Shown here: one piece after another, positions 35,217 to 64,000 of the stretch
Position numbering within the stretch: position 1 is the stretch's first letter
How the letters are laid out: the number at the start of each line of letters is the position of its first letter
IMG/VR virus record: IMGVR_UViG_3300030451_005868
Coordinates: 18,669-82,668 of that record
Direction: 5' to 3' (one strand)
Source: a virus
Length of the DNA: 64,000 nt
Made by a program: the position numbers and the translations under genes
The notes under the pieces: model-generated
The model's database searches: none
Told to the model about the DNA's origin: nothing
What the model saw: only the letters and a program-made list of their open reading frames with translations

Positions 35217-38200
35217 TTATTCAGGTGCATTTGTCGGCTCATCCGCTATGAAACGAGCCTGAACTGTGCTTGATGCTTGTAAACCTTTACCATCTGCAGG
35301 ATTACCATCAGCCGCTGTATACCATACCTGTCCTCTCTTGTGTAGTATTTTGACCTGTGTATCTGCCGCTGGTGCTGTGCTTAATGTCACTGCCGCAGTC
35401 GATCCGTCCACAGAGTAGTTAATAGTTGATCCGTCTTCGCTAGTGAGCAACAATCGTTGGCCACCAATGAATATGTCTAACTCACTAGCAGAAGCGGGTG
35501 TTTGTGATAGATTAAACGTTGCAGTACTACCATCACCAGTAAATGTATTGGTGTATACTGTGTCCGTATAAGGTATAGTTTGAGTACCAGACGCATCTAC
35601 CACTGCTGTGCCTGAACTATGATCCTTAATTCCTGTACCAAGTGTGCCTCGTCTTAGTTGGCCTAAAGTGTCTCCTGACTTGGTAAAATATTCTATTCTT
35701 TCTTTATCAACAAAAATTACACCTGGTATGTTGTTGGCCGCATTTGGCTCCGGCAACACAGTTCCATCCTCAACTTGAATAACGATAGATTCGTCTGTTA
35801 CATCTTGTGCAATTTTTGTTGTGGCATTTTTGTTTATTCGTTTGTAAAAAGTTCTATTCAACATGTCTTTGAATATTCTAAAACCTGTTGCTCCAATTGC
35901 AGATTCAACCGCAAAATACATCACATCCAATCTGTCTGAAGATGTGATACTTGTTTTGTTCAACACAGTTAAAGTATTGCCTGACACTGTGAAGCCAGTA
36001 CCAGGAGTCAACTGTTCTCCATTGAACCATGCAAAAGTGTAACTTGGATTCAAGGTATCAAATCTCAGTTTGAATACATTATTAGTCTTGCCTTCCAATA
36101 CCTCCCTACGTAGTTTCATTCCCAAAGCATTATTAAATGTGGTGACATTTATCACATCACCACTGGATAAAGAATATCCATCTGAAGAAATTTGAGCAGG
36201 TTCTAGTATGACGTCTGTGCCATCAACTGTGTAATGATTATCAACTAATGTTGAAATTGCAATTAGGTCATTTTGTGCTGGTGCTGTAACAAATGAAATT
36301 CTGTCTGGAGATCCAGCCACATCTGTTGTGACTAAAGTAGTGTCCACTGTGTCAGTTTCATCAGCAGTCAGAATAGTGCCTGCAAGATCCACCACATAAT
36401 CTGTGTTCTGTACCTGTTTCACCCCATTGACATGCACAACAATTTGTGATGGATCTGTGATAGTCTTCACAGGATCAATTGTGCTGTCTTCACCTAATGT
36501 GTTTGTAAATGTTGAATCTTCTCCCAAACCTGTCAATGGATTGAATCCATATCTAGTGGTAGTGCCATCTCCAACATAGTAACTGATGTCAGGACCACGT
36601 AACATTTTTCCGCCCACTTCGATCATTGTCAAACCTGATAGAGGACCAATTGCTCCTGGAGGAAACGACAATGTGTATCTTGTTATGGCACTGTTAAATG
36701 TGATTAGTTCATTTCTAATACTTGCAAAACTTCTTGTGGACGTAGTTGATTTGTTGAAACCAGCGATCTGAACAAAAGCGTTTGCCGCTGGTGCACTGTC
36801 AAATGTAACTGTGATTGTGTTTGCAGTGGTTGTAGTTGAAAATAAAGTAGTTGGGCCTCCGTCAATGGTCACGTAGATGTCACTGGCAGTTGAATCCAAA
36901 TTAAATTCTCCTCTGGTGCTTGTGGTGAATGTGGTAGTTGATCCGTCACCTCGGTATTGGTCCAATACTCTGTAGTTTTCACCTGATACAGCAAAAGTTC
37001 TAACACTGATTGCTTTTCCTAGTCCTGGCGCACTTCCAAATGTGATTGTTTTGTCTCCAACATCAACTGTGTAGTCTGTGGTTAATCGTTTGACTGTGCC
37101 GTCTACAGAAACTGTTACTGATGCAAGAGATCCAGGGAAATCTCCTAATGCAAAAGTAGTAGTTACAGCATCTCCTGTATATAAATTTTCAGTTATAAAT
37201 GGAACTCCAGACTCTGGTGATGTATAAACTTTGATATCAACTGTGTCAAACATTTGGCCTGGTACAGCCTCTTCTGGTGCGTAACTTGTTTCTGGTGATA
37301 CAAATTGATCACCGTCGGTAAGTATATCACTGGCCGCTGTGCCTAATGCAGTGTTGAATAGGCCCCCTTTTAATAATGTATCAAGTGTTCTATCATCCGT
37401 TGGTGTCAGCACTCCGTCATCATCAATAGGAATAAACTCTACTAAAGCATTTTCGTCTGGAGTGGTGCTGAGTTGGAAACTGGTTGTGGAGCCATCTCCT
37501 CTAAACACATCTGACAGTTTAGTTCTTGTGCTATCGCCTAAAGTGGTGTATACAGAATATACATCTGACTTGGCAGGAGCAGTTGTGAAAGTATATGTGT
37601 TTGTAGAGCCATCTGCAATAAAGGCTTTGACACGTGTGTCACCAAAATTGTCCCATGGATAATCATACCAATCAGCGTTATCCCATCCTTGTCCTTGACG
37701 GAATAGTAATCCTGTAACCATTGTGCCACCGTAATCTACACCCGCCATTAGTTGGGATAATTCATTACCAGGCATACCTGAACCTGGTGTGTAGAATCCT
37801 GCTGTTCTGTCTGCGGCAGTTAGGCCTGTTTCGTCACCTCGTATTTTATAAACTTTGCCAATGTTGTCATTGAATTTAGTATTTGAAGTGAAATGATCTG
37901 TAGCCTTATACAATTCATTGTTGTATCTAATTAATTGTCCGTAAGCATAGGAAGTGTTTATGGCCCAATCTACCACAGCATGAACTGGATGAACTCTGTC
38001 AAACTTGATAGTGGTATCAATATCTCTCACAAGATCATTCTGTAAATTAGCATATGCTCTCGCAGTGTCACTTGGTGTGGTGCCATCATTTTTTCCGCCA
38101 GTAAGAACCACAGTAGGAGTTGTAGTATAATTTTTTCCGTTACTGACCAATGTAATTTTTGTTACTCGGCCGTCAACAACTGTGGCTGTGGCTGTGGCCG

Positions 38201-59230: not shown

Positions 59231-60253
59231 ATGTTTTTTAAAAAAGTTGCTTGTTTCACAGACATACACTTTGGATTGAAAGGTAACAGTCGTGTACACA
59301 ACGATGACTGCGAAGCATTTGTGTATTGGTTCATTGAACAGGCCAAGCAACATGGTTGTGAAACTGCAATTTTCCTAGGTGACTGGCATCACCACAGGTC
59401 AGCAACCAATGTGTCCACTATGAATTACACAGTGTCAAACATGGAAAGACTAGGTAAAGCATTTGAACAAGTGTATGTTATAATGGGCAATCATGATCTG
59501 TATTACAGAGACAAACGAGAAATAAACTCTATGGAATACATTAGAAACATTCCCAACATCAACATTGTAAACGACTGGATAGTCAAAGATGATGTTGCAA
59601 TTATTCCATGGGTGGTGGGTGACGAATGGAAAATTATACAAAAAATGAAACAAAAATATGTGTTTGGACACTTTGAACTGCCGTATTTTAAAATGAATGC
59701 AATGGTAGAAATGCCAGATGTGGGTGAACTGAAAGCAGATCATTTTGCAGACTGCGGTATGGTATTCTCAGGACACTTTCACAAACGACAACAAATGAAA
59801 AATGTCACATACATGGGCAATGCCTTTCCACACAACTATGCAGATGCATGGGATGACGACAGAGGTATGATGATATTGGAGTATGGCGGTGAACCAAAAT
59901 ATATCAATTGGCCCGACATGCCAAGATACATCACTATTAAAATCAGTGAGTTGTTGGAAGATCCTGAACAATATCTTAAACCAAAAATGTATGTGAGATG
60001 CACACTGGATATAAAAATCAGTTACGAAGAAGCAAACTTTATAAGAGAAACTTTCATAGACAAATATCAACTGCGTGAACTACAACTGATCCCTGAACAG
60101 GTTGAACAAGCACAACAACCCACTGTGGAAGTGCAAAAGTTTGACAGTGTGGACCAAATTGTGATCAAACAGTTGCAGGGTGTTGACAGTGAAACTTATG
60201 ACAAAAGTATATTAACAGCAATTTACAATGATCTAGATGTCTCGAGTCAGTAA
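59231..60253 (+). CDS. Recombination endonuclease subunit, gp47/Mre11/SbcD-like
   Basis: TDIHFG, LGDW, GNHD, GHFE, SGHFH metallophosphoesterase motifs. Confidence 0.92.
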   Translation: MFFKKVACFTDIHFGLKGNSRVHNDDCEAFVYWFIEQAKQHGCETAIFLGDWHHHRSATNVSTMNYTVSNMERLGKAFEQVYVIMGNHDLYYRDKREINSMEYIRNIPNINIVNDWIVKDDVAIIPWVVGDEWKIIQKMKQKYVFGHFELPYFKMNAMVEMPDVGELKADHFADCGMVFSGHFHKRQQMKNVTYMGNAFPHNYADAWDDDRGMMILEYGGEPKYINWPDMPRYITIKISELLEDPEQYLKPKMYVRCTLDIKISYEEANFIRETFIDKYQLRELQLIPEQVEQAQQPTVEVQKFDSVDQIVIKQLQGVDSETYDKSILTAIYNDLDVSSQ

Positions 60254-60413
60254 AAAGAAATTATTGAAAATATTAAAAGGTGAATATGAGTACAATGACT
60301 CATTGACCATGAACAAACAACAAATTTTTGACATGTTCAAAAATCCACCAACTCAAGAACAATGGTTAACTGGATACAAACAATGGAAAAGAAAACAAAG
60401 TGCTAACAATTAA
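60237..60413 (+). CDS. Small hypothetical protein, 58 aa (not in the ORF track)
   Basis: MSRVSKKKLLKILKGE...WKRKQSANN bridges gp47 and gp46, overlapping both. Confidence 0.5.
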   Translation: MSRVSKKKLLKILKGEYEYNDSLTMNKQQIFDMFKNPPTQEQWLTGYKQWKRKQSANN

Positions 60414-62175
60414 AGAACTAACAGTAAAAAACTTTATGAGTGTGGGCAATGCCGCACAGAGCATAAATTTTGCCAATAAAAATTTAGTTTTGGTTATTGG
60501 CGAAAACATGGACTTGGGTGGCGATGACGCAGGTGCCAGAAACGGCACAGGAAAGACCACCATAGTGAATGCACTCAGTTATGTGCTGTTTGGTGAACCT
60601 TTGACACAGATAAGAAGAGATAATCTTGTCAACAAAACCAACGAAAAAGGCATGATGGTCAGTGTGAAGTTCACAAAAAACAATGTGGAATACACCATTG
60701 AAAGAGGACGTAAACCACAGATATTCAAATTTTATGCCAACAACATTGAACAAGACTTTGAAAGTAACGAAGCACAAGGTGAAAACAGAGAAACACAACA
60801 AGAAATAAACAGTCTGTTGGGCATGACTCATGCCATGTTCAAACACATCTGTGCATTGAACACATACACACAACCATTCCTGGCCACCAAACAGGCAGAA
60901 CAAAGGGAAATAATTGAACAGTTGTTGGGTATAACACTGTTGTCACAAAAAGCAGATTTACTGAAAGAAAAAATGAAAGCGGCCAAACAGGAACTTACAG
61001 AACAAAAATACAAAATTGACAGCCAGATTGCATCTAATGAAAAAATACAAGAAAGCATTGAAAGTTTGAAACTGAGATCCACTGCATGGCAAACACAAAA
61101 AGATCAAGACACAGAAAAATTTTCTGAGGCCATTGCTGAATTGGAGAAAGTGGACATCAAAGCAGAACTGGACGCACACAAACGTCTGCAAAAACACACA
61201 GAAATGCAGACTGCACTCAGAGGACTGCAAAAAGAACGTGCATATCACGAAGATGCTTTGACCAAAGCACAGACCACTGTGGAAAAAACAGAAAATGATC
61301 TGGAATACACTGCACAACAAAAGTGTCCCACATGTGAACAGGAACTAAAAGACGACAAGCACGAACAATTGGTGGGCAAATTGAAAACCACACTGACAGA
61401 ATCCAAAGAATATGCTGACAAACTGCAAAGTGATCTTGCAAAAATACAACAGGGCATTGATGACGTGGGTGATCTGGGTCAAATACCAGACACATACTAT
61501 GACTCCATAGACGAAGCATACAATCACAAAGGATCATTGAAAGATCTCAAACGTCAATTGGAACAAACACAGTCCAAAGAAGATCCATACGCAGAACAGA
61601 TCGAAGACCTAACCAAAAAAGCCATACAAAAAATAGACTACACGCAAGTCAACGAAATGGAAGATCTCTACAGGCATCAAGAGTTTTTATACAAACTGCT
61701 GACAGCAAAAGATTCGTTTATTAGAACAAGAATAATAGAACAGAATCTCACATACTTGAATCAGCGTTTGGCATTTTTCTTGGGCAAGGTGAAACTGCCA
61801 CACACAGTGATTTTCCAACCAGATCTCAGTGTGAGAATTGAAGAGTTGGGCAGAGAACTGGATTTTGATAATCTAAGCAGAGGTGAACGTAACAGATTGA
61901 TATTGAGTTTGAGTTGGGCATTCAGAGATGTGTGGGAAAGTCTTTATCAACAGATCAACTTGCTGTTCATTGACGAGTTGGTGGATGCCGGGATGGACAT
62001 ATCCGGTGTGGAAAGTTCCATGGCAGTGCTGAAAGAGATGAGCAGAACACAAAACAAAAACATTTTCTTGATTTCACACAAAGATGAATTGGTAAGCAGA
62101 GTTAATTCTGTACTGAAAGTAACCAAAGAAAACGGTTTTACCAATTATGCCAACGATGTTGAAATAATTGTATAA
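60400..62175 (+). CDS. Recombination ATPase subunit, gp46/Rad50/SbcC-like
   Basis: KNFMSVG, Walker A NGTGKT, zinc hook CPTC, signature LSRGE, Walker B FIDE, ISH. Confidence 0.93.
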   Translation: MLTIKELTVKNFMSVGNAAQSINFANKNLVLVIGENMDLGGDDAGARNGTGKTTIVNALSYVLFGEPLTQIRRDNLVNKTNEKGMMVSVKFTKNNVEYTIERGRKPQIFKFYANNIEQDFESNEAQGENRETQQEINSLLGMTHAMFKHICALNTYTQPFLATKQAEQREIIEQLLGITLLSQKADLLKEKMKAAKQELTEQKYKIDSQIASNEKIQESIESLKLRSTAWQTQKDQDTEKFSEAIAELEKVDIKAELDAHKRLQKHTEMQTALRGLQKERAYHEDALTKAQTTVEKTENDLEYTAQQKCPTCEQELKDDKHEQLVGKLKTTLTESKEYADKLQSDLAKIQQGIDDVGDLGQIPDTYYDSIDEAYNHKGSLKDLKRQLEQTQSKEDPYAEQIEDLTKKAIQKIDYTQVNEMEDLYRHQEFLYKLLTAKDSFIRTRIIEQNLTYLNQRLAFFLGKVKLPHTVIFQPDLSVRIEELGRELDFDNLSRGERNRLILSLSWAFRDVWESLYQQINLLFIDELVDAGMDISGVESSMAVLKEMSRTQNKNIFLISHKDELVSRVNSVLKVTKENGFTNYANDVEIIV

Positions 62176-62262: not shown

Positions 62263-62457
62263 ATGTCTAACACACACGAACAGATCATGACAGAGATTCA
62301 AGCATACTCTGAAGAGAACGGTAAGTTCACAGAGAAAGGTGTCAAGGCTTCTGCAACAAGAGCCAGAAAAGCACTTGCTAATCTTTCTAAATTGATCAAA
62401 GCAAGAAGAAAAGAAATTCAAGAGGCAAAAAACGCGGCATCAACGCCGGCGGCATAA
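62263..62457 (+). CDS. Histone H1-like (Hc1-type) DNA-binding protein
   Basis: KFTEKGVKASATRARKAL..LSKLIK.RRKEIQ matches the Hc1 core; AGGA RBS. Confidence 0.8.
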   Translation: MSNTHEQIMTEIQAYSEENGKFTEKGVKASATRARKALANLSKLIKARRKEIQEAKNAASTPAA

Positions 62458-62478
62458 TTGCCAATTGGATCCAATTAG

Positions 62479-62506
62479 AGCCTCTACTTTCGAGTAGAGG
62501 CTTTTT
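62479..62506 (+). terminator. Intrinsic terminator between convergent genes
   Basis: AGCCTCTACT-TTCG-AGTAGAGGCT followed by a T-run. Confidence 0.85.
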
Positions 62507-62906: not shown

Positions 62907-62960
62907 TGACAATATTTAAATCCAAAAAGATTGACCTTCAAATAAAACTCATATAAACAA

Positions 62961-63373
62961 GTGTGATAGGCACACAAACAATTCTTTATAATTCACACAG
63001 GCAAACATAGCATCCAAGTAGTGAGCACGGAAATGCGGCTGAAATGCGACAGGTGAATCCGTTGATGCAAAAGGCAAAATGATGAGGCTCTGAGAAACAG
63101 CAACCTCAGGTCTACCAAAAATTATCATGCAAAGATTTGGTAGGCTCGCGTTGGATGAATAAGCGAATGGGTACAGCACAACCGCCCAGTTACGACAGCG
63201 TTGCATGGTGACTGTGATACTCGCCACAGTGGGTACAAGTCAGTTCGGCTAGAAATAGCCGAATTGTGACTGCTCATCTGCCACAGTAGGCGCTAAAATT
63301 TAAAATTGCGTTTGCGTAAATTAAAAAAGAAACGAGCGTAAGCGAAGTTTCAGATGGTTGTAAACCATCTTTT
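62961..63373 (+). ncRNA. Candidate large structured non-coding element (ncRNA and/or replication origin), family not recognised
   Basis: Largest non-coding gap in the window; at least 8 helices, a GAAA tetraloop, an 11-bp loop-distal pairing and a 3' hairpin plus T-run; weak upstream TTGACC/TATAAA. Confidence 0.55.
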
Positions 63374-63393
63374 CATTGACCTTAAGTAACAGT

Positions 63394-64000
63394 ATGAAAA
63401 CGTTTGTGTACGGAGATTCTTTCAGCAATCATGCATGGTGTCAATGTCCGCAGGATCGCATGTGGTATGCACAATTGGTTCGGGGTGAACTGATTGATCG
63501 CACACGTGTGAGTGCCAGCACACAGGAGATGTTTCTGCTGGCCACCACAGACGCCGTGTCTAACCCCACAGCACGTTTTATTCTGGGCACCGGAGTGATG
63601 TATTCTCGCATGATGTTGTACACAGATCAACTGTACGCCGACGAACAGCGTCCCGACAGCATAGACTCGTGCCTACAGCATTTTGACACACAGCAGTTGG
63701 ACCGAGCACTGCACGTGGGCATATATCATCACACCCTGGTTTGGAGTCAGTATCTGGCCAATGTGATCAGTTTTGGCAGTGTGGCACAGGGACAACAGTG
63801 GTTGATCACTCACATGAACGCACCTGCCAACGAACACATCGCTGTCACACACCCGCTGATACAGCCGTTGCTGAAACGCACCATGTCCATGCCCGGATAC
63901 ATCGATCATCGTCACTCGTGCAGACACCTGTGTGAACAGGCCGGGATACTGCCGCATGATCATGCACAGTACGGTTGGGACGGTCATCACTCTGAGGCGG
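63394..64000 (+). CDS. SGNH/GDSL-like protein, 3'-partial (not in the ORF track)
   Basis: Hand translation MKTFVYGDSFSNH...YGWDGHHSEA stays open to the window end; GDSF and DGH motifs. Confidence 0.75.
   Translation, partial: MKTFVYGDSFSNHAWCQCPQDRMWYAQLVRGELIDRTRVSASTQEMFLLATTDAVSNPTARFILGTGVMYSRMMLYTDQLYADEQRPDSIDSCLQHFDTQQLDRALHVGIYHHTLVWSQYLANVISFGSVAQGQQWLITHMNAPANEHIAVTHPLIQPLLKRTMSMPGYIDHRHSCRHLCEQAGILPHDHAQYGWDGHHSEA

Follow-up and report, generated by a model that had tools for sequence, protein, structure and literature searches.

Near the 3′ end of the window, that is, the whole 64,000-nt stretch of viral DNA analysed here, the plus strand encodes a structured RNA of about 410 nt (62963–63371), and in many phages compensatory mutations have preserved its fold. 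The RNA of the window has a near-invariant 19-mer in the loop of helix H7, a pseudoknot formed by the loop of helix H5 and two modules that end in the same word. The preferred reading, to which we assign a probability of roughly 55%, is a stand-alone non-coding RNA gene whose product acts in trans, the two words gripping two copies of a partner. An earlier note on this DNA, made from the sequence of the window, had proposed a large, pseudoknotted, plus-strand phage non-coding RNA, and both covariation and strand-specific G–U pairs bear out that proposal.

Genomic Setting and Extent of the RNA Gene

The window is the terminal 64 kb of a viral contig from IMG/VR, which is 82,668 bp long and 24% complete according to CheckV. 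The RNA gene is placed between replication and recombination genes and structural genes. Genes of recombination nucleases lie upstream: a gp47-like gene at 59231–60253 and a gp46-like gene at 60400–62175. The best cultured matches of gp46 are found in jumbo phages (PA5oct with 47.5%, followed by Phosso, Atu_ph07 and SCTP-2); the source is therefore taken to be an uncultured giant T4-like phage. A 64-aa gene for a protein similar to the chlamydial histone H1-like protein Hc1 (Pfam E 1.9e-12) is located at 62263–62457; after it there is a strong 12-bp terminator hairpin (62477–62504), overlapping the 3′ end of the convergent GIY-YIG nuclease gene.

The gap at 62913–63375 contains short, non-conserved frames only. 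The absence of a credible ORF, claimed in the earlier note, is upheld: antisense frames of 45–137 aa are present, but they differ in length, and most gap runs in the alignment (780 of 915) have a length not divisible by three and are therefore frame-breaking. The element had been placed at 62961–63300; it is present there, but its true extent is longer and reaches about 63371, with two conserved hairpins at the 3′ side. The features of the gene and its surroundings are listed in Table 1.

Table 1. Features of the RNA gene and the adjacent region (positions in the window)
Feature	Position	Strand	Remarks
Small single-domain GIY-YIG nuclease, 142 aa	62484–62912	−	Pfam SegE_GIY-YIG, E 1.7e-36; divergent from the RNA gene
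Promoter-like site	62931–62957	+	TTGACC 62931–36, 15-nt spacer, TATAAA 62952–57; read from sequence
Variable 5′ leader, then conserved single-stranded AGGCAAACAUA	62963–63009	+	AGGCAAACAUA at 62999–63009; from the alignment, 5′ end putative
5′ domain	63010–63068	+	H1 63010–14/63064–68 encloses H2 63027–31/63058–62 and variable hairpin H3 ~63036–50
H4, UGAGG/CCUCA with inner 2–3 bp	63083–63108	+	Outer pairs 63083–87/63104–08; preceded by invariant AAAUGAUG
H5, 11-bp helix and two closing pairs	63109–63146	+	63109–19/63136–46; 8-nt loop 63124–31 forms the pseudoknot
H7 and tetraloop hairpin H8	63168–63196	+	H7 63168–72/63184–88, invariant 11-nt loop; H8 63189–90/63195–96
PK1, 3′ strand	63202–63209	+	Pairs with 63124–31
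Module 1	63208–63229	+	GUGACUG, 4 nt, ACUC, word 1 GCCACAG 63223–29
H9, 11-bp hairpin with GAAA loop	63241–63266	+	63241–51/63256–66
Module 2	63266–63286	+	GUGACUG, CUC, AUCU, word 2 GCCACAG 63280–86
Variable hairpin and A-rich linker	63287–63328	+	Helix 11 90.8% paired in relatives; window gapped here
3′ hairpins H10 and H11	63329–63371	+	H10 63329–33/63347–51; H11 63352–58/63364–70

The pattern TTGACn-N15-18-TAWAWH, with spacers of 15 to 18 nt, was found in 56 of 71 homologues; the 15-nt spacer of the window is short for sigma-70. Judging by this pattern, the RNA gene probably possesses its own sigma-70-like promoter. The sequence TATTTAAA at 62913–62920 is kept in nearly all homologues. On the minus strand, where it reads TTTAAATA, it lies a few nucleotides upstream of the start of the GIY-YIG gene, and it resembles the T4 late promoter, TATAAATA.

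A check of metatranscriptomes, as suggested in the earlier note, showed that contigs from the RNA libraries of three studies match the element, with DNA carry-over being possible. One such contig, 158 nt long, is identical to 63042–63199; another, of 304 nt, has 11 differences, and several contigs from one metatranscriptome run span 62952–63357. RNA-library contigs start at 62952 and 62965, which are positions of contigs and do not give transcript ends, strand or level; gaps in contig cover carry no weight either way.

Conservation and Distribution

The element is carried by 42 of 80 gp46-anchored loci, at 70–90% identity. A family HMM matches 160 of 204 fetched loci, including 97 full-length copies, 70 of them distinct; these 70 sequences together with the window constitute alignment A1 (n = 71). 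The 19-mer at 63169–87 is nearly invariant and occurs in at least 119 IMG/VR stretches. Seven records matched it in genome_contigs. Four of them are short MAG contigs bearing the whole element; the other three (L200–L202), in which the 19-mer alone matches, were dismissed as chance. A blastn search against 50,697 phage records found no cultured homologue of the element, and the core covariance model R1 gave nothing better than E 0.1 on the PA5oct locus or on the whole genomes of PA5oct and Melnitz. Many uncultured marine phages of the giant T4-like kind carry the RNA, and it is abundant among them.

A distant clade, with gp46 proteins 56–59% identical to those of the marine clade, carries a related RNA. 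R1 matches 21 of 27 loci of this clade, all on the plus strand and in the same place, with E-values, which are rough, of 1e-6 to 0.3; with the filters off, two more distant loci yielded weak top matches. Read by eye, the distant copies share the modules and the 3′ hairpins.

Secondary Structure

The folding-energy check gave minimum-free-energy z-scores of −3.5 for the plus strand and −3.6 for the minus strand relative to shuffles. The energy is thus lower than that of the shuffled controls, as the earlier note would have it, but there is no strand preference, and energy alone says little because it is equally low on both strands. The dense pairing seen in the window is nevertheless real and above chance, the matter being decided by covariation across the 71 sequences: the check on homologous loci revealed compensatory changes in support of the structure. 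RNAalifold predicted 58 pairs on A1, 33 of them with compensatory changes. The curated structure, including the pseudoknot, comprises 76 pairs in 13 helices. Among the 71 sequences, 97.5% of the cells of curated pairs are paired, compared with 87.0% in column shuffles, and none of 500 shuffles reaches the observed value; when the partner columns are slid by 1–3 positions, only 32–38% of cells are paired. Changes on both sides were found in 40 of the 76 pairs and in 602 cells. Seven pairs have G–U or U–G as the commonest form, which would be A–C mismatches on the other strand, and the plus strand is therefore fixed.

From the 5′ end, the body consists of the leader, AGGCAAACAUA, H1 enclosing H2 and H3, H4, H5 with its pseudoknot loop and a weak H6; these are followed by H7, H8, the 3′ strand of PK1, module 1, H9, module 2, the variable hairpin, the A-rich linker, H10 and H11. 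H4, H5, H7 and H8 make up a core held together by PK1. Six of the helices drawn from the window in the earlier note are kept with compensatory changes in the 71 sequences. These include GCATC/GATGC and ACGGA/TCCGT (H1 and H2, three of five pairs with double changes in each), TGAGG/CCTCA with its inner 2–3 bp (H4, double changes in three of five outer and both inner pairs, the inner register being ambiguous) and TGGG/CCCA, now H7, the closing pair of which covaries, as do both pairs of H8. The pairing CTACCAAA/TTTGGTAG is likewise kept and extends to the 11 bp of H5, where double changes affect 11 of 13 pairs. By eye, H3 shows covariation, but its columns in A1 are misaligned. The GAAA hairpin, H9, is kept as well, with 99.1% of cells paired and double changes in 5 of 11 pairs. 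In the 3′ hairpins, double changes were found in three of five pairs of H10 and two of seven pairs of H11. Although H11 of the window is scored as a terminator-like hairpin, just 13 of 71 homologues have a U-rich tail after it.

The pseudoknot had been proposed with 11 bp. Eight of these pairs hold and constitute PK1, with 98.9% of cells paired and double changes in four of the eight (in 35, 14, 11 and 16 sequences), but the remaining three are not among the kept pairs. Four other pairings drawn from the window do not survive comparison. GTGTG/CACAC is paired in only 51% of cells; only CUG/CAG persists of ACTGTG/CACAGT; AGTCA/TGACT, 90.6% paired, has one-sided changes only and competes with the better-supported register of the GAAA hairpin; and the long-range pairing GTAG-TGAGCA/TGCTCA-CTGC, 75% paired, has no compensation and is broken wherever one side changes. 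As a set, these four are paired in 72.9% of cells versus 72.1% in shuffles.

Twin Words

The RNA contains two repeat modules of about 20 nt, both of which close with a 7-nt word. The opening triplet of the word agrees between the two copies in all 71 marine sequences (ACC in 42, GCC in 12, AGC in 10, AGU in 6 and ACU in 1), and, according to the word tallies, most letters beyond the triplet agree too. In the distant clade, the two 7-nt words match each other in all 19 distinct sequences, being AGAUAAU in 10, GGAUAAU in 6, ACAUGAU in 2 and AGAUGAU in 1. At least nine different words exist across the two clades, and the state of the word changes at least 10 times on a quick tree built without the word columns. 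The letters preceding the words (ACUC versus AUCU) stay different in both clades, and this fixed difference argues against simple gene conversion. To our knowledge, no described RNA family has a pattern of non-complementary twin words mutating in step.

No partner of the words was found inside the RNA, where the columns of each word carry mutual information with those of the other word and with nothing else. In the 64-kb window, the complement of the word is present 10 times, a frequency not exceeding that seen for other words, and forms no inverted pair; it has no consistent place in the flanks of about 10 kb of the marine loci or in the flanks of the distant loci. A 6-mer complement present within 350 nt downstream in 13 of 66 marine loci was rejected as a conserved stretch of c1 coding sequence, wrong-word controls being equally frequent. 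A recurrent same-sense 7-mer in the distant gp46 genes was set aside too: it represents K-D-N codons and does not track the word. At 38180–38198, CTGTGG is present in three tandem copies with 6-nt spacing, a short in-frame repeat in which the word complement is contained by coincidence.

The marine triplets ACC, GCC, AGC, AGU and ACU look like Thr, Ala and Ser codons. A codon reading was abandoned, since the distant words AGAUAAU, GGAUAAU, ACAUGAU and AGAUGAU do not fit it. Pairing of the word with an anticodon loop is also unsupported; for the AGC and AGU words, the full loop needs a pyrimidine at position 37.

Neighbouring Genes

In 56 of the 67 marine loci with enough flank, the GIY-YIG gene directly adjoins the RNA gene in divergent orientation. 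In eight of the 67 it lies within 3 kb with other genes between, and in three there is no copy in the available flank. In 23 loci of the distant clade, the nuclease gene adjoins the RNA on the same strand, an inverted arrangement compared with the marine clade. The identity of the nucleases between the clades, 58–65%, is similar to that of gp46, 56–59%. A 61.5%-identical homologue is encoded after nrdB in Methylophilales phage Melnitz, the genome of which has no such RNA, and the nuclease family is therefore not dependent on the RNA; homologues about 40% identical are present in hundreds of cyanophage records. The Melnitz gene (L207, 4001–4441), the closest cultured homologue, is located right after the gene of the ribonucleotide reductase small chain, which is the position of denA in T4. 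This position suggests that the GIY-YIG protein may play an endonuclease II-like role rather than that of a homing nuclease.

A co-directional ORF is located at the 3′ end of the RNA in 48 of 64 loci, encoding c1 in 42 of them; the 16 loci without one count for a stand-alone transcript. The identity of the downstream gene varies among c1, c60, c28 and c62, and in the distant clade an unrelated 384-aa ORF is found. Protein c1 (256 aa; L019:7027–7794 and 41 other loci) is absent from the window. It has no Pfam or NCBIfam match, but its predicted fold (pLDDT 82.4) best matches ATE1, aminoacyl-PG synthases/MprF and FemX, with modest scores (best E 1.5e-6, TM 0.52/0.40); in this model, c1 resembles an aminoacyl-tRNA transferase. 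Searching the PDB with the sequences of c1 and the GIY-YIG protein yielded no useful match. In the window and one other locus, the RNA is followed by c60, an ORF without an assigned family and with no Pfam, NCBIfam or PHROG match. In the window it occupies 63394–63999, truncated by the end of the contig; it has a high content of His and Cys and, by eye, more G+C than its surroundings. In L168, a c60 homologue sits between the RNA and c1.

Relation to Catalogued RNAs

No Rfam family was found in the window at gathering thresholds, nor at E ≤ 10, and ARAGORN found nothing. The models of tmRNA, RNase P RNA, group I and II introns, GOLLD, ROOL, HEARO and other large Rfam RNAs were unmatched in the window, which agrees with the failure of the earlier note to assign the region to tmRNA, RNase P or intron cores. 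A C/D-box small RNA was considered and rejected: the sR5 model reaches 10.8 bits, with a gathering threshold of 40, and in the putative box C the second GA forms covarying Watson–Crick pairs in H4.

The novelty claimed for the element, which a strong Rfam hit would remove, is retained for the window but qualified for the family, since the distant sister clade carries the orphan motif RF01718 (Polynucleobacter-1) as a probable 5′ domain. RF01718 matches four of the six distant loci searched, with 74–111 bits (gathering 37), and ends 6–22 nt before the R1 core. The sites are L079:6474–6606, L080:3854–3989, L059:3618–3759 and L073:6496–6639, directly upstream of the core of an RNA of about 500 nt. 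The motif was not matched in the marine clade, either in the window (even at E ≤ 10) or in L019, L053 and L146. Its position just upstream of the shared core in the distant loci makes it the probable 5′ domain of a homologous long RNA; Polynucleobacter-1 seems to represent just the 5′ third of a longer T4-like phage RNA. The RF01718 model, 141 nt long, lacks the core, pseudoknot, twin-word modules and 3′ hairpins of the phage RNA.

Like the phage RNA, Polynucleobacter-1 is an orphan without a known function. In a table of Weinberg et al. 2010 (PMC2864571), it is listed as a motif of Burkholderiales from fresh water and estuaries, possibly cis-regulatory, and not as a phage RNA; in the searchable literature, its name occurs only in that article. 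Pieces of the RNA may be among the 8,495 unnamed candidates of a 2023 paper on viral csRNAs (PMC10690425). One branch of the family is, accordingly, partly catalogued, while the full RNA, the pseudoknot and the twin words are undescribed in searchable papers, supplements excepted.

Comparison with Known Systems

GOLLD and ROOL are large, intricately folded RNAs without a known function that are often encoded by phages and prophages. The phage RNA differs from them in its smaller size, the lack of an Rfam match and the lack of any sign of self-assembly, and we know of no description of twin covarying words in GOLLD or ROOL. T-box leaders are long structured RNAs that precede genes linked to aminoacyl-tRNA and have a short variable word and a terminal hairpin. 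The phage RNA is similar in being a structured RNA with a variable word and a terminal hairpin, located in most relatives upstream of c1, a gene with a putative link to aminoacyl-tRNA. Unlike a T-box, it has two identical 7-nt words instead of one codon and a UGGN bulge, has no Rfam T-box match at E ≤ 10 and, in a quarter of the loci (16/64), precedes no co-directional gene. Omega RNA and the IS110 bridge RNA consist of a structured scaffold with short programmable single-stranded segments and are encoded beside a nuclease or recombinase gene. A scaffold with short words and an adjoining nuclease gene are shared features; however, the two segments of the phage RNA are identical, and its nuclease family also exists without the RNA.

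Possible Functions

According to the preferred reading, the RNA would be made from its own sigma-70-like promoter and would act in trans, with the folded body as a scaffold on which the two words are displayed. These would recognise a single outside partner, either in two copies or at two equivalent sites. Recognition would most probably take place by base pairing, rather than through a protein reader, given that close relatives differ in the word by single letters. There are points against this: no partner was found in the RNA, the window or the flanks, seven letters are short for specific pairing, and a protein might read both words instead. A narrower version, which we regard as unlikely, is a programmable two-site RNA in which two identical 7-nt guides pair with two equivalent sites, for instance on the two arms of a symmetric DNA target or on two RNA copies, together with the GIY-YIG nuclease or the c1 protein. 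If that version is true, fast word switching between related phages would set target specificity.

The RNA could instead be a cis-acting leader, a riboswitch or T-box-like attenuator, in which the last hairpin forms or melts and controls the downstream gene, perhaps by sensing tRNA for c1. The frequent co-directional ORF at the 3′ end, which is mostly c1, and the resemblance of the predicted c1 fold to aminoacyl-tRNA-dependent transferases speak for a leader, as does the terminator-like H11 of the window, with only a few bases between its end and the next ORF; moreover, CAUCU occurs in both module 2 and H11, making an alternative pairing possible in the marine clade. This pairing is absent, however, from the distant homologues read, the U-rich tail after H11 is rare, a quarter of the loci have no co-directional gene to control, and where there is one its identity varies. 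As no T-box or riboswitch family was matched in Rfam at E ≤ 10 either, a leader seems doubtful. Another possibility is a ribonucleoprotein with the neighbouring GIY-YIG nuclease, the twin words being two short guides for a target of two-fold symmetry. The nuclease is a single 142-aa domain, directly adjoins the RNA gene in most marine loci, keeps this adjacency, inverted, in the distant clade and has diverged about as much as gp46. Yet the inversion of a single gene keeps its neighbours, so that adjacency can be plain synteny; some marine loci have intervening genes or no copy in the available flank, the window has no inverted pair of words, and the homologues in Melnitz, without the RNA, and in cyanophages weigh further against such a complex, which we consider very unlikely.

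The two other explanations do without the words. A ribozyme or a self-assembling ‘ornate’ RNA would act through its invariant core, and the RNA is indeed large and pseudoknotted, with an invariant unpaired 11-nt loop in H7 and invariant AAAUGAUG and GCGUUG; GOLLD and ROOL, too, are phage-borne. No ribozyme or large-RNA family of Rfam was matched, though, no self-complementary loop hints at contacts between oligomers, and the twin words would be left unexplained, which makes this explanation quite unlikely. The region could also be no RNA gene at all, but a DNA-level element (an origin or sites for protein binding) or an antisense gene for a small protein, as might be thought from its place between the gp47 and gp46 genes and the structural genes, from the antisense frames and from a fold energy equally low on both strands. 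Against this stand the compensatory changes that keep the pairs, the G–U pairs that fit the plus strand only, the frame-breaking gap runs and the RNA-library contigs that match the element, and we regard it as extremely improbable.

Significance

Only a small number of large structured RNAs of unknown role have been reported, even fewer of them from phages. The twin words of the trans-acting RNA proposed here provide a handle: what they grip can be sought by changing them. The link to RF01718 would change how an orphan motif from 2010 should be annotated and studied.
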